Under the pieces are notes generated by a model, which did not search any database, had not been told where the DNA came from, and was given only the letters and a program-made list of their open reading frames with translations. Both the position numbers and the translations under genes were made by a program. A stretch of 64,000 nt of DNA from sequence record OM632671.1. One strand, written 5' to 3'. The number at the start of each line of letters is the position of its first letter. Within the stretch, counting starts at the first letter, position 1. This DNA comes from Escherichia phage BEU50. Below are positions 2,336 to 44,152 of this stretch, one piece after another.

Positions 2336-3022
2336 ATGAAACTGTCTAAAGATACTATCGCTATTCTGAAAAACTTTGCCTCTATTAACTCCGGCATTCT
2401 GCTTAGTCAAGGTAAATTTATTATGACTCGTGCAGTTAATGGCACCACTTATGCGGAAGCAAATATCTCCGATGAAATTGATTTTGACGTAGCACTTTAT
2501 GATTTGAATAGCTTCTTAAGCATTTTGAGTCTAGTGTCTGATGATGCTGAAATTTCAATGCACACTGATGGCAATATTAAAATTGCAGACACACGTTCCA
2601 CAGTTTATTGGCCTGCCGCTGACAAGAGCACCATTGTTTTTCCTAATAAGCCAATTCAATTCCCAGTGGCTTCTGTGATTACTGAAATTAAAGCCGAAGA
2701 CCTTCAACAATTGCTTCGAGTTTCACGTGGTCTTCAGATTGATACAATTGCTATTACAAATAAAGATGGTAAAATTGTTATCAACGGCTATAATAAAGTT
2801 GAAGATTCTGGACTAACTCGTCCTAAGTATTCTTTGACTCTTACCGATTATGATGGTTCTAACAACTTTAACTTCGTAATCAATATGGCTAATATGAAAA
2901 TCCAGCCAGGTAACTATAAAGTAATGTTGTGGGGAGCTGGTGATAAAGTTGCAGCTAAGTTTGAAAGCTCTCAAGTAAGTTATGTTATTGCGATGGAAGC
3001 CGATTCTACCCACGACTTCTAA
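2336..3022 (+). CDS. 45: Sliding clamp gp45
   Basis: Translation MKLSKDT...TRAVNGTTYAEANISD...STHDF matches T4-family gp45 from memory; the ORF track start at 2321 is an upstream TTG, ATG at 2336 follows the RBS AAAGGAA. Confidence 0.9.
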   Translation: MKLSKDTIAILKNFASINSGILLSQGKFIMTRAVNGTTYAEANISDEIDFDVALYDLNSFLSILSLVSDDAEISMHTDGNIKIADTRSTVYWPAADKSTIVFPNKPIQFPVASVITEIKAEDLQQLLRVSRGLQIDTIAITNKDGKIVINGYNKVEDSGLTRPKYSLTLTDYDGSNNFNFVINMANMKIQPGNYKVMLWGAGDKVAAKFESSQVSYVIAMEADSTHDF

Positions 3023-3097
3023 GTCAAAGCTTTACGTTTATTGTGATACGTTTATGGAGGAGAAATCCTCCAGTTTAATGATAATGAGGAAAATTAC

Positions 3098-4060
3098 ATG
3101 ATTACTATCAATTCCAAAGAACACATTCTAGAACAGAAATATCGTCCTTCTTCCATTGACGAATGTATTCTGCCTGCGTATGACCATGAAACATTCAAGT
3201 CTTTAGTATCTAAAGGAAAACTTCCTCATATTATTTTGCACTCTCCTTCTCCTGGTACAGGTAAAACAACCGTAGCAAAAGCATTATGTAACGATATCAA
3301 CGCTGAAATGATGTTCGTCAACGGTTCTGATTGTAAGATTGATTTTGTGCGTGGTCCGTTAACTGCATTCGCTCGTTCAGTCTCAATGGAAGGCAAGCCG
3401 AAAGTTATCGTTATCGATGAATTTGACCGTAGTGGCCTTGCTGAATCACAACGGCACCTTCGTACATTCATGGAAGAATTCTCTAGTAACTGTTCTATTA
3501 TTATTACTGCTAACAACATCGATGGAATTATTGAACCATTACGTAGTCGTTGTCGAGTTATCGAATTCGGACGTCCAACCGAAGAAGATAAAATCTCGAT
3601 GATGAAGAAAATGATTCATCGTATGGTTGAAATCTGTAAGAACGAAAATATCGAAATCGCTGATATGAAAGTTGTTGCAGCTCTGGTTAAAAAGAACTTC
3701 CCGGACTTTCGTCGTACAATTGGACAATTAGACCAGTACTCGTCTAAAGGTGTTCTCGATGCAGGTATTCTGTCTATCGTAACTAATGACCGTGGCACAG
3801 TCTCTGATGTTATCGAAGCAATGAAGAACAAAGATATCAAACAACTTCGTGCATTAGCTCCAAAATATGCTGCAGATTATTCATGGTTCATCGATAAATT
3901 AGTTTCAGAATGTTATGACCAAGTTGCACCTGGTAAAAGTATTATTTCGCTTTACGAAATTGCAGGCGAAAATAATAAGTTTCATGGACTAGCTAGTAAT
4001 ATTGAATTACATGTTATGTATATGCTTCTTCAATTGACTTGTGAACTGACTTGGAAATAA
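3098..4060 (+). CDS. 44: Clamp loader large subunit gp44 (AAA+)
   Basis: Walker [15 protein letters not shown] Walker B, SRC motif ([10 protein letters not shown]); synteny 45-44-62. Confidence 0.9.
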
Positions 4061-19230: not shown

Positions 19231-19599
19231 ATGAAAAAATTAATCGCTTTAGCAATGGTATTCGGATTAACCGGATGTGGTGCCCATGGCTTTATCCCTA
19301 ATAACGTTGGCCAACTGATTTACAATCCGAATGTTAAACAGTACGACCAACCTAAAGTTGAAGTGGAAGACCCGGTTACTGTAGGTAATCGAATGATTCA
19401 AGCTGATGCCCATGCTCAACGTTATCGTGACTCTGATACTGTAGCATTGTCAAAAGAACAACGCGTTAAAGAACATTGCTTACAGGCTACTGAAATCGCA
19501 TTCATTCGCTATGTTGAAACAACTGGTAAAGAGCCTACCCAGAAACAAATAGCGAATAACTACGTCCAGTGTATTGAACGTTTAAACAAATTTAATTAA
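19231..19599 (+). CDS. Putative lipoprotein (122 aa)
   Basis: Signal peptide with lipobox MKKLIALAMVFGLTGCG. Confidence 0.45.
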   Translation: MKKLIALAMVFGLTGCGAHGFIPNNVGQLIYNPNVKQYDQPKVEVEDPVTVGNRMIQADAHAQRYRDSDTVALSKEQRVKEHCLQATEIAFIRYVETTGKEPTQKQIANNYVQCIERLNKFN

Positions 19600-19972: not shown

Positions 19973-20266
19973 ATGAAAAAGTTATCATTGGCAGCAATCT
20001 TACTTGCAGTATCATGTGCACCGGCTCCAGTTACGGCAGGTTATGATAAAGACCTCTGTGAGTGGTCAATGACTGCAAATCAAGAAGATGTTGAACAACA
20101 AATCTTCTCTGATATCATGAACATCACTAAACGAGACCGTCCTAATATGGTTAATAAAGTTGTTGAACAACTTAAGTCTGGCGGTATCATGCAGTACAAC
20201 TATGTTTTGTATTGTGACCCTAATTTCGATAACAAAGATATCGTAACCGAAATCACAGGTGAATAA
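19973..20266 (+). CDS. Periplasmic Sp (spackle)-like protein, 97 aa with signal peptide
   Basis: Signal peptide MKKLSLAAILLAVSCAPAPVTA; size and GYDKDLCEW...YNYVLYCD content fit what I recall of T4 Sp. Confidence 0.45.
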   Translation: MKKLSLAAILLAVSCAPAPVTAGYDKDLCEWSMTANQEDVEQQIFSDIMNITKRDRPNMVNKVVEQLKSGGIMQYNYVLYCDPNFDNKDIVTEITGE

Positions 20267-37310: not shown

Positions 37311-39368
37311 ATGATTATCGAAACGGCTAAAGAAACGATTATTGGTTCTGGTGGTAAGAGCACAGCATTCACTATTCAAGGCAATAGCAAAGTTTATAAG
37401 ATTTTGTCTAATGACCTTTATACAAACAAAGAATTGGCTTGTGTACGTGAATTAATCACAAACTGTATCGATGGACAAATTCTTAATGGTTGCACTGATA
37501 AGTTTATTGTTCAGGCTCCAGGTCGTTTAGACCCACGTTTTGTAGTTCGAGACTTTGGTCCTGGTATGAGTGATTTCACCATTCGAGGTAATGACGAAGA
37601 GCCAGGAATCTATAACTCATATTTTGCTTCAACTAAAACATCGAGTAATGATTTCATTGGTGGATTCGGACTCGGCTCTAAAGCTCCATTAGCATATACT
37701 GATACGTTTAACATTACTTCTTATCATAATGGTGAAGTTCGTGGTTATGTAATTTATCAAGATGACAGTGGTCCACAAATTAAGCCAACCTTTGTAGATA
37801 AGATGGGCCCTGATGACCGTACGGGTGTAGAAGTAGTTGTGCCTGTTAACCCGGAAGATTTTGAAAAGTTCGCATCTGAAATTGCGTATGTTATGCGTCC
37901 TCTCGGCGATATTGCAGAAGTTCGTGGTGTTAAAGATATCAAATACTTCCCGGAATTCGATGATGTTTATTTAGCCAAGGAAGCTCCATGGGGTGAACGT
38001 GGTAATATCATGGCTGTTTATGGTGGTATTGTATATCCAATCGGAAGTGTTATTAAAGAACAAACATGGATGATGACGCGATGCACTACAGCTTATATCA
38101 AATTCCCTATGGGTGAACTAGATGTAGCCCCGTCTCGTGAAGCATTGTCATTTGATAAACGTACAGTAGCAAATATTCATAAACGTGTTGCAGAAATTGA
38201 TGCAAAATTATTTGCTGAAGATTCTAAGAAATGGATTGATTGTGAATATCCACGTCATGTATTCCGTGAAATCGATTCTCTTGGTTACTCTGCTCGTAAA
38301 TACATGGAAAAAGCCGGTTCTAATATTGAATCACTGAAATATTCTAAAGAACAACTAACTTATTCTGAGTTGTACAAACGTTTTAAAATGGGACCTGAAT
38401 GGTGCAACCTTGGCGTTGTATATGATATCGTTTCAGATCCACGACTTCGTCGTATTCGTGAAAGCGGAAGCTCGTCTGCAACTATTTCAATTAATAGCCT
38501 GCTAGGTATTAGTCGTAAGCATATTGATATTGTTATTGACGATGTGAAAGGCCGCGTACCAATGATGCGTGCTCTGAACGATGCTTTGACTTCCACCGAT
38601 GCATCAACACTCGTTGATAAGGTTCCTTCCGGACGGGGTAGTAGCGTATTATTCATTAACCCGGAAGATGAAGTTGCAATGAAACTTCTGGAACGATTAA
38701 AGGTTATTTTCGCTGGTGATAGCCTTAAATTTTATAAGACCTCTGAAATTCTTGCATTAGTTAAACCATGGATTGAAGTTAAAGAACGTTCATCGCAGCC
38801 TCGTCCTAAATCCCCAAGTGCTCATCGGTTCTTTAAGAATGAAAACGATGTTTGGGTATCAGAAGATCTCTTTATTCCGGCCGGTAAAGCTGATGAGATT
38901 CAAGGTTATGTTGTAATTCGTAATCGTTCTAACGCTGAATGTCTTGACGCAGATAAAGGTTGGTTGAACTATGATTCTAATTTCTTGACTCGTATTGCTG
39001 ATTTGTCAGGTATTAAAGAGTTCACTGTAGTCCGTCCACAGATTGCTAAGAAAGTTCGTAAACTTGGTGAAGTAGAATGCTTGTTCGAAAAATCAATTAA
39101 TGACTATATTACGCTAATTGATAAAGTGGATTATGATGAGTATGTATCACCAAGTCGTAGAGCACAGCCTTATTTGAATCATATTACTCGTAACGAAGAG
39201 CTTAACTTCCTTAGTAAGTATTTTAGCTCTAAGAACAAAGAAATCAGTAAAGACTTTGCAAAACTCTCAACAGTAAATAATCGCTGGGGATGGAATCGAT
39301 TCGCAGGTGCTGATAACAGAGACCTGAACAGGAAGTTAGAATTGTGCTTAAAGAGGACTCTTTTGTAG
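37311..39368 (+). CDS. rIIA: rIIA-like protein (GHKL ATPase fold), possibly C-terminally truncated at a breakpoint
   Basis: N-terminal MIIETAKET...[15 protein letters not shown] (GHKL motif I-like), GGFGLGSK (G-loop); 685 aa versus about 725 aa recalled for T4 rIIA; no rIIB follows. Confidence 0.55.
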
Positions 39369-39619
39369 ACCCAGAAATTTTCTACGGTTTGCGTGCCCGT
39401 GAAATTGAAATTGAGCCACAACCTACAGTTAAAATTGAAGGTGGTCAACACCTGAACGTTAACGTTCTGCGTCGTGAAACTCTGGAAGATGCAGTTAAGC
39501 ATCCGGAAAAATATCCGCAATTGACTATCCGTGTATCCGGTTATGCAGTTCGCTTTAACTCTCTGACTCCGGAACAGCAGCGCGACGTTATCGCTCGTAC
39601 CTTTACCGAGAGTTTGTAA
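39344..39619 (+). CDS. GrcA/YfiD-like autonomous glycyl-radical domain (3' portion of gene; N-terminal part not present upstream)
   Basis: C-terminal about 60 aa ...[60 protein letters not shown] is near-identical to E. coli GrcA as I recall it, including the glycyl-radical motif RVSGYAV; host-like GC-rich codons. Confidence 0.6.
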
Positions 39620-39840
39620 TGGCAAAGATAATTATTGAAGGTTCTGAAGATGTGCTAAATGCTTTCGCCGAGTGGTTTAGTAATTCAGGTGAACAACAAT
39701 TTAATGAAGCGTGGAATATGGGTGATATTGATGGAATTTATCCTACGACAGAAATTTCTGTTCAGGGATATGGCATTCATGAACCTATTCGTTTAGTTGA
39801 ATACGATTTATGTACTGGCGAGGAAGTCAAATATGATTGA
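39619..39840 (+). CDS. Hypothetical protein (73 aa)
   Basis: ATG overlapping upstream stop. Confidence 0.3.
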   Translation: MAKIIIEGSEDVLNAFAEWFSNSGEQQFNEAWNMGDIDGIYPTTEISVQGYGIHEPIRLVEYDLCTGEEVKYD

Positions 39841-40099
39841 AGATATTAAGGGTTATAAACCACATACCGACGAAAAAATCGGTAAAGTAAATGCTATTAA
39901 AGACGCTGAAGTTCGTTTAGGACTTATCTTTGATGCTTTATACGATGAATTTTGGGAAGCATTTGATAGCTGTGAAGATGATGAACTCGCGAAGAATTAC
40001 GCCGAAAGCCTCGATCAGTTAACTATTGCTAAAACGAAACTCAAAGAAGCAAGTATGTGGGCTTGCCGTGCTGTGTTCCAACCAGAGGAAAAATACTAA
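39833..40099 (+). CDS. Hypothetical protein (88 aa)
   Basis: ATGA start/stop overlap with previous ORF. Confidence 0.3.
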
Positions 40100-40379: not shown

Positions 40380-40409
40380 GTTTACTTTTCCTCTTGACTG
40401 TGGTATAAT
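40380..40409 (+). promoter_or_regulatory. Early promoter (GTTTAC, 18 nt, TATAAT)
   Basis: Upstream of regB. Confidence 0.4.
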
Positions 40410-40436: not shown

Positions 40437-40898
40437 ATGACTATCAACACAGAAGTTTTTATCCGTCGAAATAAGCTTCGTCGTCACTTTGAGTCGGAGT
40501 TTCGTCAAATTAACAATGAGATTCGTGAGGCATCAAAAGCAGCAGGGGTCTCATCGTTTCATCTAAAATATTCTCAGCATCTTCTTGATCGTGCAATTCA
40601 ACGGGAGATTGATGAGACATATGTTTTTGAATTATTCCACAAAATAAAAGACCATGTTTTAGAAGTTAATGAATTCCTGAGTATGCCTCCGCGTCCTGAC
40701 ATTGATGAGGATTTTATTGATGGGGTTGAATACCGTCCTGGACGTTTAGAAATCACAGATGGAAATCTTTGGCTTGGATTTACAGTTTGTAAACCTAATG
40801 CGAAGTTCAAAGACCCGTCGCTTCAATGCAGGATGGCAATTATCAATAGTCGTCGTTTACCAGGAAAGGCTTCTAAAGCAGTAATTAAAACTCAATGA
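40437..40898 (+). CDS. regB: Endoribonuclease RegB-like (153 aa)
   Basis: Length and sequence fit T4 RegB as I recall it; position upstream of tk. Confidence 0.6.
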   Translation: MTINTEVFIRRNKLRRHFESEFRQINNEIREASKAAGVSSFHLKYSQHLLDRAIQREIDETYVFELFHKIKDHVLEVNEFLSMPPRPDIDEDFIDGVEYRPGRLEITDGNLWLGFTVCKPNAKFKDPSLQCRMAIINSRRLPGKASKAVIKTQ

Positions 40899-40905
40899 GG
40901 TAAGC

Positions 40906-41451
40906 ATGAGAAAAGCACTACTCGCTGGTCTATTGGCCATTTCAATGATGGCACATAGCTCCGAGCATACTTTCAGTAATGTCCAACTCGATAACATGCG
41001 TTACGCGTATCAATTCGGGGAACAATTTTCTAAGGATGGAAAATATAAAACACACAAAAACATCCACAAGAGCGGATTGGGTCATATAATGGCTGCTATT
41101 TTGTGGCAAGAAAGCTCTGCCGGAGTTAATTTAAAATCTAAACCAAAGCATCACGCCTACGGAATGTTCCAAAATTATTTGCCTACTATGCGAGCGAGAG
41201 TTAAGGAACTTGGTTATAATATGACCGATGCTGAAATAAAAAGAATGTTGAATAAACGATCCAATTCAGCTTCCTGGGCGTACATTGAACTTTCTTATTG
41301 GTTAAATATACATAAGGGCGATATAAGAAAAGCAATATCCTCTTATAATTCGGGATGGAATGTTAAAGCAGGTTCTAAATATGCTTCTGAAGTCCTAGAA
41401 AAGGCTAATTACCTTAAAAATAATAAACTTTTGGAAATAGTAAATGACTAA
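40906..41451 (+). CDS. Secreted lytic transglycosylase-like protein (SLT-like motifs)
   Basis: Signal peptide MRKALLAGLLAISMMAHS; ILWQESSAG ... AYGMFQ ... SYNSGW resemble SLT family E-S / GLMQ / AYNAG motifs. Confidence 0.45.
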   Translation: MRKALLAGLLAISMMAHSSEHTFSNVQLDNMRYAYQFGEQFSKDGKYKTHKNIHKSGLGHIMAAILWQESSAGVNLKSKPKHHAYGMFQNYLPTMRARVKELGYNMTDAEIKRMLNKRSNSASWAYIELSYWLNIHKGDIRKAISSYNSGWNVKAGSKYASEVLEKANYLKNNKLLEIVND

Positions 41452-41785
41452 AATTTTGGTTTTATGTATAGGATTAATTTCATTTTCTGCGTTAGCAGAT
41501 ACATCATATACTGAAATTAGAGAGTATGTAAACCGTACTGCAGCGGATTATTGCGGGAAAAATAAAGCATGCCAAGCTGAATTTGCGCAGAAATTAATAT
41601 ATGCATATAAAGACGGAGAAAGAGATAAATCAAGCAGATACAAAAATGATACATTGTTAAAACGATATGCTAAAAAGTGGAATACCTTAGAATGTTCAGT
41701 TGCGGAGGAGAAAGATAAAGCCGCTTGTCATTCAATGGTTGACCGTTTAGTAGATTCTTATAATCGAGGATTGAGTACTAGATGA
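41444..41785 (+). CDS. Secreted small protein with four Cys (113 aa)
   Basis: Signal peptide MTKILVLCIGLISFSALA. Confidence 0.35.
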   Translation: MTKILVLCIGLISFSALADTSYTEIREYVNRTAADYCGKNKACQAEFAQKLIYAYKDGERDKSSRYKNDTLLKRYAKKWNTLECSVAEEKDKAACHSMVDRLVDSYNRGLSTR

Positions 41786-42261
41786 TTGTAAAATATATCA
41801 AGGGCGATATTGTCGCCCTATTTCTTCAAGGTAATATTATTGCGCACGGGTGCAATTGCTTCCACACAATGGGCTCTGGCGTAGCAGGTCAATTAGCAAG
41901 AGCCTATCCCAAAATTTTAGAAATAGATAAAACCACTACCGAGTACGGTTCTCGTGATAAATTAGGCGATATGTCTATTGTTTTTAAACATAGTCCTACG
42001 GGATTTGGTATATGCTATAACCTGTATACACAATACGAACCGGGTCCTAATCTTGATTATGGTGCTTTAGTAAACTGCATGATAGAATTAAATCTACAGG
42101 CAGAAACCCTTTTGTTTAAACCAGTAATTTACATTCCACGCATAGGTTGCGGTATTGCTGGTGGTGATTGGGATAAGGTTTCTAAATTAATCGACATGTT
42201 TACTCCTGATATTGATTTAATAGTGGTGGATTATGAAAGTACATTACCCGCATCCGTTTGA
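41782..42261 (+). CDS. Macro-domain-like protein (ADP-ribose binding/processing)
   Basis: GDIVALFLQGNIIAHGCNCFHTMGSGVAGQLARAYP resembles the macro-domain N-terminal signature (GDIT...VNAAN..L.GGGV.GAI); later PRIGCGIAGGDWDKV. Confidence 0.5.
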   Translation: MIVKYIKGDIVALFLQGNIIAHGCNCFHTMGSGVAGQLARAYPKILEIDKTTTEYGSRDKLGDMSIVFKHSPTGFGICYNLYTQYEPGPNLDYGALVNCMIELNLQAETLLFKPVIYIPRIGCGIAGGDWDKVSKLIDMFTPDIDLIVVDYESTLPASV

Positions 42262-43009: not shown

Positions 43010-43591
43010 ATGGCGAGTTTAATTTTTACTTACGCAGCAATGAATGCTGGAAAATCTGCTTCTCTTTTGACTGCTGCACATAATTATAAAGAACGCGGAA
43101 TGAGTGTATTAGTTCTTAAGCCTGCTATTGATACTCGCGATTCTGTCTGTGAAGTCGTTTCTCGCATTGGAATTAAGCAGGAAGCGAATATTATTACAGA
43201 TGATATGGATATTTTCGAGTTCTATAAATGGGCTGAAGCACAAAAAGATATTCATTGCGTATTTGTAGATGAAGCTCAGTTTTTAAAAACTGAACAGGTG
43301 CATCAATTAAGTCGAATTGTTGATACATATAATGTTCCTGTTATGGCTTATGGATTAAGGACTGATTTCGCTGGAAAATTGTTTGAAGGTTCTAAAGAAC
43401 TTTTAGCGATTGCAGATAAACTTATTGAACTAAAGGCAGTTTGTCATTGCGGCAAAAAAGCGATTATGACAGCTCGATTAATGGAAGATGGAACACCAGT
43501 TAAAGAAGGTAATCAAATCTGTATTGGTGATGAAATTTATGTTTCTTTGTGTAGAAAACATTGGAACGAATTAACTAAAAAGCTCGGTTAG
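43010..43591 (+). CDS. tk: Thymidine kinase
   Basis: Walker A AAMNAGKSASLL, DEAQF, C-terminal zinc-binding CHCG...C..H; 193 aa. Confidence 0.9.
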   Translation: MASLIFTYAAMNAGKSASLLTAAHNYKERGMSVLVLKPAIDTRDSVCEVVSRIGIKQEANIITDDMDIFEFYKWAEAQKDIHCVFVDEAQFLKTEQVHQLSRIVDTYNVPVMAYGLRTDFAGKLFEGSKELLAIADKLIELKAVCHCGKKAIMTARLMEDGTPVKEGNQICIGDEIYVSLCRKHWNELTKKLG

Positions 43592-43858: not shown

Positions 43859-44152
43859 ATGGCCTTAAAAGCAACGGCACTATTTGCCATGCTAGGATTA
43901 GCGTTTGCTTTATCTCCATCGATTGAAGCGAATGTCGATCCTCATTTTGATAAATTTATGGAATCTGGTATTAGACACGTTTATATGCTTTTTGAAAATA
44001 AAAGCGTAGAATCATCTGAACAGTTCTATAGTTTTATGCGAACGACTTATAAAAATGACCCGTGCTCTTCTGATTTTGAATGTATAGAGCGAGGCGCGGA
44101 GATGGCACAATCATACGCTAGAATTATGAACATTAAATTGGAGACTGAATGA
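43859..44152 (+). CDS. Secreted hypothetical protein (97 aa)
   Basis: Signal peptide MALKATALFAMLGLAFALSPSIEA. Confidence 0.35.
   Translation: MALKATALFAMLGLAFALSPSIEANVDPHFDKFMESGIRHVYMLFENKSVESSEQFYSFMRTTYKNDPCSSDFECIERGAEMAQSYARIMNIKLETE

Follow-up and report, generated by a model that had tools for sequence, protein, structure and literature searches.

The 64,000-nucleotide window of Escherichia phage BEU50 (sequence record OM632671.1) harbours at positions 40906-41785 the T4 genes vs.1 and vs, which probably encode an exported lytic transglycosylase (Vs.1) and an exported protein with disulfide bonds (Vs). Exactly two open reading frames (ORFs) are found in this interval, both on the plus strand, at 40906-41451 (181 amino acids (aa)) and 41444-41785 (113 aa). 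Family matches and synteny identify the first as T4 vs.1, with a match to PHROG 600 (5.6e-69), and the second as T4 vs, with a match to PHROG 1256, 'valyl tRNA synthetase modifier' (5.2e-40). Both are long-catalogued and already known T4 early genes. An earlier reading of the interval made from the letters alone (the sequence-only reading) did not recognise the second ORF as Vs or the pair as T4 vs.1/vs. The locus is that of a Tequatrovirus (T4-like): between 40400 and 42300, identity to Shigella phage SHFML-11 and other T4 relatives is 99.5%, and at least 80% of this stretch is covered in each of 498 phage records. The Vs.1 protein is 98.9-100% identical to Tequatrovirus entries and has the same place between regB and vs; it is the same gene as T4 vs.1, with no difference of substance. 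Vs likewise corresponds to T4 Vs. Its mature part of 95 aa is identical to that of the T4 protein, which has two extra residues (Ser-Ala) inside the signal peptide that the window copy is without. Homologues of Vs.1 were detected by tblastn in 2013 phage records, of Straboviridae of many hosts, Ackermannviridae and Ounavirinae, and those of Vs in 795 phage records, every one a phage of Enterobacterales. The order regB - vs.1 - vs - tk.4 is conserved in Mosigvirus, Dhakavirus, Gaprivervirus, Mosugukvirus and a Klebsiella T4-like phage. In view of these matches, and because gene order is kept across five other genera, the alignments indicate that both ORFs are real conserved genes and not chance ORFs.

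Vs.1 is predicted to be a periplasmic family-1 (GH23/SLT) lytic transglycosylase (LT), made as a precursor of 181 aa. It matches the Pfam SLT domain (PF01464) with 23.4 bits, at a gathering score of 21.3 (E 4.8e-5), and SLT was matched independently by 55 of the 62 Vs.1 homologue clusters at E <= 0.01, the best at 1.3e-7. The consensus of family-1 LTs, including Slt70 and MltD of E. coli, consists of E-S, G-L/M-x-Q, A/S-Y-N-x-G and Y...V/I, motif definitions that are said to be those of Blackburn and Clarke from 2001. All four motifs are shared by Vs.1. Motif I is E69-S70 (codons at 41110-41115, plus strand as for all those that follow), which lies in WQESSAG and places the predicted catalytic Glu at the C-terminal end of helix 59-70. 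Motif II is G86-M-F-Q89 (41161-41172), the equivalent of GLMQ in Slt70, motif III is Y147-N-S-G150 (41344-41355), of the form A/S-Y-N-x-G, and motif IV is Y159...V163 (41380-41394). Residues E69, G86, Q89, Y147, N148, G150, Y159 and V163 are invariant in the 62 Vs.1 homologue clusters. The same columns, together with S70, stay invariant after addition of the homologues of phiAS4, RB43, Cba120 and Erwinia phage M7, covering Straboviridae, Ackermannviridae and Ounavirinae. The SLT-like motifs (E-S, GMFQ, YNSG) that the sequence-only reading had noticed in the first ORF are thus present and invariant across 62 clusters and three phage families. Profile-sequence alignment with hhalign placed GHIMAAILWQESS...YGMFQNY of Vs.1 on SYAMA-IARQESA...SGLMQIM of Slt70, with E69-S70 on E505-S506 of the Slt70 precursor, at an E-value of 0.36 that is not significant alone. 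We take E505 of the precursor to be E478 of the mature enzyme, the catalytic residue.

Structure prediction agrees with this assignment. The AlphaFold2 model of Vs.1 has a mean predicted local distance difference test score (pLDDT) of 88 and a predicted template modelling score (pTM) of 0.81, and its helix 59-70 stops at the E-S motif. The best matches of the model in the PDB, found with Foldseek, are MltD, goose-type lysozyme, GH23 chitinase, Slt70/Slt, Cj0843 and the phi6 P5 lysin. Nearly all of the top 30 PDB matches are GH23 proteins, with probability up to 1.00, E ~1e-2 and template modelling (TM) scores of 0.42-0.54. No invariant Asp or Glu was found between E69 and Q89 in the 62 Vs.1 clusters, which might have served as a second catalytic carboxylate, the next invariant acidic residue after E69 being E128. 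With no second conserved carboxylate after the Glu, Vs.1 looks more like a transglycosylase than a goose-type lysozyme. Vs.1 resembles Slt70 and MltD in its predicted fold, in the position of the Glu at a helix end and in its predicted export by a Sec signal. It differs from them in being a bare catalytic domain of ~160 residues, devoid of superhelical and LysM modules and of a lipid anchor, and in adding an N-terminal helix and a family-specific segment (25-58), while sequence identity with these enzymes is 13-18%. Single-sequence and profile searches of PDB sequences gave nothing usable for Vs.1 or Vs, and NCBIfam gave no match for either protein. Motifs, profiles and model together give good support to Vs.1 as a protein of the SLT/GH23 type whose catalytic motifs are all intact, and as a predicted exported enzyme.

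VirB1, P19, IpgF and EtgA, the small specialised LTs of secretion and conjugation systems, consist of a signal peptide and a single SLT domain of 150-200 aa, and are presumed to make local, non-lethal gaps in the murein. Vs.1 shares this architecture with them. Unlike these proteins it has no adjacent trans-envelope machine for secretion, conjugation or flagella, its neighbours being regB, vs, a macro-domain gene, tk, pnk and nrd. A tblastn search of Vs.1 against 72,556 plasmids gave no match, and a close link to conjugation-type transglycosylases was therefore removed from consideration. An SLT similarity has been published for six vs.1 orthologues (Nolan 2006, PMC1524935), and earlier PSI-BLAST results for T4 vs.1 are ascribed to Miller 2003 as cited there. 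Several GenBank records of T4-like phages already label Vs.1 as 'transglycosylase SLT domain-containing protein'. A literature search found no paper assigning an experimentally tested function to vs.1.

Outside phages, a Vs.1-type domain (PHROG 600, 9.4e-35) was observed on chromosomes of enterohepatic Helicobacter species, in a secreted protein of 290 aa with a Pro/Gln/Lys-rich tail. The copy of Helicobacter canis (NZ_VXKE01000010.1, positions 2405-3277 of the fetched locus) adjoins an ORF of 747 aa that we take to be glyS. A scan of a genome collection with Vs.1 gave these Helicobacter loci and one weak match in an archaeal metagenome-assembled genome (E 1e-4), with no others.

Both proteins look exported by way of a Sec signal peptide. 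That of Vs.1 (residues 1-18, 40906-40959, plus strand) reads MRK / ALLAGLLAISMMA / AHS|SE, and that of Vs (residues 1-18, 41444-41497, plus strand) reads MTK / ILVLCIGLISFSALA / ALA|DT. Export was judged by a rule-based scan of our own, which asks for K or R in the n-region, 7-15 uncharged hydrophobic residues in the h-region, a small residue at both -3 and -1 and no Pro at +1. Such a signal was found in 61 of the 62 Vs.1 clusters and in 36 of the 38 Vs clusters, and the exceptions have apparently truncated N-termini. In the homologues of both proteins an h-region of 9-15 uncharged hydrophobic residues is followed by an AXA-type site. The layout is kept while the residues themselves drift: mean pairwise identity in residues 1-18 versus the remainder is 0.35 versus 0.62 for Vs.1 and 0.33 versus 0.59 for Vs, and in both families insertions and deletions are concentrated in the signal-peptide segment. 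In the AlphaFold2 models pLDDT in this segment is 56-61 for Vs.1, with values above 90 after it, and 49-53 for Vs. The Vs.1 homologues of Cba120, M7, phiAS4 and RB43 all carry a signal peptide, as does the chromosomal homologue of H. canis.

Only 7 of the 137 ORFs in the window that start with ATG and have at least 60 aa pass the rule, Vs.1 and Vs among them. The other five are Spackle (19973-20266), RI (43859-44152), an ORF with a lipobox (19231-19599) and two probable false positives. Spackle and RI serve as positive controls for the rule, since both are exported T4 proteins. The claim of the sequence-only reading that both ORFs carry signal peptides, for which it had proposed signal-peptide prediction as the check, is thus borne out by a three-part layout in both proteins that is kept in nearly all homologues. 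The ORF at 19231-19599 (plus strand, 122 aa) begins with MKKLIALAMVFGLTGC, a lipoprotein-type signal with the lipobox LTGC. It lies ~370 nt upstream of the spackle gene and matches PHROG 1754, a family annotated as of unknown function.

Mature Vs (41498-41782, plus strand) is predicted to be a four-helix bundle of 95 residues, with helices at 20-37, 41-61, 68-84 and 89-110. Residues 20-110 of its AlphaFold2 model mostly have pLDDT above 90, and the Pfam family PF26829 (ValRS_modifier) is precomputed on all Vs homologues. Vs has five Cys residues. That of the signal peptide is not conserved, and the four in the mature part, C37 (41552-41554), C43 (41570-41572), C84 (41693-41695) and C95 (41726-41728), are invariant in the 38 clusters. 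They form pairs at the turns between helices 1 and 2 and between helices 3 and 4, spaced as CX5-6C and CX9-10C. To judge from these positions, the pairs probably staple two helical hairpins as disulfides, and they may instead form a Cys4 metal site. A profile search with the Vs alignment against 1.84 billion representatives returned eight proteins only. The two distant homologues fetched from these (E ~1e-4) are both located in T4-like contigs, directly after a vs.1 homologue, so no cellular relatives of Vs are at hand to hint at its function. One of the two, P0119 (4001-4327 of its contig), has a lipobox (ALSGC) at the position of the signal peptide and the other has an ordinary signal peptide. 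As the lipobox of P0119 replaces an ordinary signal peptide, export of Vs appears to be kept though the type of signal changes.

Foldseek comparison of the Vs model with the PDB gave only generic helical bundles and no match with E < 1, and comparison with BFVD gave only proteins of the Vs family at E < 0.1. Similarity of Vs in fold or sequence to a known family of periplasmic lysozyme or LT inhibitors (Ivy, PliC/MliC, PliG or Spackle) was thus not found. The sequence-only reading had described the second ORF as encoding a Cys-containing periplasmic protein. The first part of this description holds, with four invariant Cys residues. As to the second part, the export signature is present, but a periplasmic location conflicts with the annotated function on valyl-tRNA synthetase (ValRS).

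An exported transglycosylase next to an exported disulfide protein is, on the whole, the probable explanation of the locus, and several observations weigh against it. For Vs.1, the structural matches reach only an E-value of ~1e-2 with TM ~0.5, and the single-sequence alignment with Slt70 is not significant by itself. T4 mutants in e, the lysozyme gene, fail to lyse normally, from which it follows that Vs.1 is no strong murein hydrolase in vivo. For Vs, an export-type sequence stands against a role on ValRS, a cytoplasmic enzyme. The vs product is said to bind the ValRS of the host (Muller and Marchin 1975/1977, as cited in PMC8076793). In a 2025 preprint no T4 gene had a stronger effect on fitness in M9 medium than vs; what the modification does is given there as 'not known', and the defect of the vs knock-out was specific to minimal medium (10.1101/2025.11.20.689424). 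Such a defect would be explained by a role in translation at least as readily as by one in the envelope.

An alternative is that Vs is a cytoplasmic ValRS-binding peptide as annotated, its N-terminus being unused or inefficient for export and its four Cys residues binding a metal, for example Zn. It is the function given in textbooks (as cited in PMC8076793), and a knock-out that impairs T4 only in M9-glucose is plausible for a factor related to aminoacylation (10.1101/2025.11.20.689424). In the model the Cys loops between helices 1 and 2 and between helices 3 and 4 lie at the same end of the bundle, which would make a Cys4 site geometrically possible, and Vs is confined to phages of Enterobacterales, as expected of a binder specific for a host protein. 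The alternative has to contend with the signal layout, which is kept in 36 of 38 clusters despite sequence drift, with two exceptions that are apparently truncated N-terminally, and with the distant homologue that has swapped its signal peptide for a lipoprotein signal. Past its predicted cleavage site Vs continues with acidic or neutral residues, as translocation would permit, and spacings of CX5C and CX10C are atypical of zinc knuckles. Full-length Vs with an N-terminal His tag was reported to be insoluble (PMC8076793), as expected from an uncleaved signal peptide. We regard a cytoplasmic Vs as a possibility to be kept in mind, though an unlikely one. The signal peptide, the lipobox variant and the four invariant Cys residues, all read from sequence, argue against binding of Vs to ValRS without disproving it. 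A literature search found no paper joining 'valyl-tRNA synthetase modifier' with 'signal peptide'. A further reading is that the ORF named vs encodes an exported, disulfide-stapled four-helix-bundle protein of the periplasm, possibly acting with Vs.1, and that the locus vs was misassigned among the small ORFs of a crowded region, or that the effect on ValRS comes from a minor unexported fraction. Taken as a whole, this proposal is rather unlikely to be correct. The sequence picture of an exported disulfide protein disagrees with the annotated cytoplasmic function, and this conflict bears on a gene-function assignment that is 50 years old.

If Vs is exported together with Vs.1, the two could form a periplasmic pair in which Vs, as a small helical partner, restrains, targets or protects Vs.1. 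A precedent is known from T4. Spackle (gp61.3), encoded in the same window, is like Vs small, early and made with a signal peptide, and it inhibits the gp5 lysozyme in the periplasm (PMC7677548). The genes vs.1 and vs are always adjacent where Vs exists, with stop and start overlapping or abutting, even for distant Vs homologues (profile E ~1e-4), and both products bear export signals. On the other side, the Vs model is unlike any solved protein structure, and neither in sequence nor in fold was a match of Vs to Spackle found. Vs.1 is far commoner than Vs (2013 versus 795 phage records) and occurs without a Vs homologue or an exported small neighbour in T4-like phages of Aeromonas, in RB43, in Ackermannviridae and in Ounavirinae. 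In Cba120, Erwinia phage M7, phiAS4 and RB43, no Vs-like or exported small protein was found among the genes that follow vs.1. Because the neighbours in these four phages are unrelated and not exported, an obligate pair of enzyme and partner is unlikely, and a periplasmic pair in general seems doubtful to us.

Gene identity, conservation, motifs, predicted folds and the layout of the signal peptides are shown by the analysis; export, signal cleavage, disulfide formation, enzymatic activity and a physiological role we infer for the two proteins. The genes regB, vs.1 and vs would be transcribed together from an early promoter, with translational coupling of vs.1 and vs. The Vs.1 precursor would lose its Sec signal peptide to yield a basic periplasmic protein of ~18.8 kDa, its export beginning early and needing no holin. 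There it would act as a single-domain GH23/SLT enzyme, with E69 as the lone acid/base catalyst, cleaving the beta-1,4 bond between N-acetylmuramic acid (MurNAc) and N-acetylglucosamine (GlcNAc) in host murein and leaving a 1,6-anhydro-MurNAc end, as Slt70 and MltD do. Vs, also made with a Sec signal peptide, would mature into its four-helix bundle of 95 residues with the two Cys pairs as disulfides. Since Vs.1 would be exported early yet infected cells stay intact, its action would be a limited remodelling and not lysis. Our best guess for its role is an accessory loosening or turnover of the sacculus within such limits. The sequence-only reading had thought of peptidoglycan remodelling during infection or exclusion of competitors; neither the analysis nor the literature searched gave a sign of remodelling or of exclusion of competitors by Vs.1, both of which are matters of speculation, and superinfection exclusion is unsupported.

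Early export without lysis calls for some restraint on Vs.1 activity, and the h-region ALLAGLLAISMMA is rich in Ala, Gly and Ser. Both features would suit an auxiliary endolysin of the signal-anchor-release (SAR) type, tethered in an inactive state until a holin depolarises the membrane and then aiding lysis. This is very improbable. A SAR domain spans the membrane with about 16-20 or more weakly hydrophobic residues and lacks a signal peptidase site; cores of 9-15 residues that lead into AXA-type sites are too short to be one. In the genomes compared, vs.1 is never located in a lysis cassette or structural module; it sits among early accessory genes. RI, once thought to be a SAR protein, is described as having a cleavable signal peptide (PMC8385771). 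That Vs.1 is a catalytically dead murein-binding protein retaining the SLT fold has hardly any likelihood: SLT profiles are matched weakly and the sequence searches returned no solved LT, but the invariance of the catalytic Glu and of all four family-1 motifs over three phage families and the Helicobacter homologue is the pattern expected of an active enzyme.

An active Vs.1 would be a third murein-active enzyme of these phages, beside the endolysin and the tail lysozyme. Few accessory genes of large virulent myoviruses are as widely conserved as vs.1, which is present in ~2000 phage genomes of three families. The reason for exporting a lytic transglycosylase minutes after infection would inform on how phages handle the envelope of their host. 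The points of interest of the locus are thus the localisation paradox of Vs and a widely conserved Vs.1 for which no functional study was found.

Expression of both genes early in infection is consistent with the surrounding sequence. A promoter-like site of the sigma-70/T4-early type (TTTACT-17-TGnTATAAT) is found at 40381-40409 on the plus strand, 28 nt upstream of regB, and is likely to drive regB-vs.1-vs. Pattern searches between this site and vs revealed no MotA box and no late-promoter box (TATAAATA). Given an early-type promoter-like site with neither of these boxes before vs, the placement of the two genes in an early region by the sequence-only reading is a fair description. The genes are tightly packed. 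The Shine-Dalgarno sequence GAGG of vs.1 (40897-40900) overlaps the stop codon of regB, the vs.1 stop and the vs start overlap by 8 nt (ATGACTAA), and the start of tk.4 overlaps the vs stop (ATGA).

The upstream neighbour regB (40437-40898, plus strand) encodes the sequence-specific endoribonuclease of T4 (Pfam REGB_T4, 1.4e-68), and the downstream neighbour tk.4 (41782-42261, plus strand) encodes a macro-domain protein (Pfam Macro, 1.3e-7). The start of tk.4 differs between records, as the SHFML-11 RefSeq entry 'phosphatase' begins 87 nt downstream (41869 versus 41782). The gene tk is located nearby at 43010-43591, and vs.4 (39797-40099) has a match to the Acb2/Tad1 hairpin domain (1.4e-19). 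The tk.4 product of T4 has been reported to be the anti-DarTG2 factor AdfM (preprint 10.1101/2025.11.20.689424), so that two anti-defence genes, vs.4 (Acb2-type) and tk.4/AdfM, lie near vs.1 and vs. A short ORF at 39344-39619 carries a glycyl-radical C-terminus (RVSGYAVRF) and is GrcA-like in relatives (T4 vs.6), its longest call starting with GTG.

A G+C-rich hairpin (GGGCGA-loop-TCGCCC) followed by a T-rich run was observed at 41801-41819, 16 nt past the vs stop and within the first codons of tk.4, with -14.3 kcal/mol for its context of 66 nt (z = -2.1). It is kept in T4, Mosigvirus, Dhakavirus and Gaprivervirus and lost in phage PM2. The hairpin encodes a conserved KGDIVAL, and coding alone may explain its conservation. 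A terminator is not claimed here, as the hairpin is part of a conserved coding sequence, that of tk.4, and PM2 does not have it.

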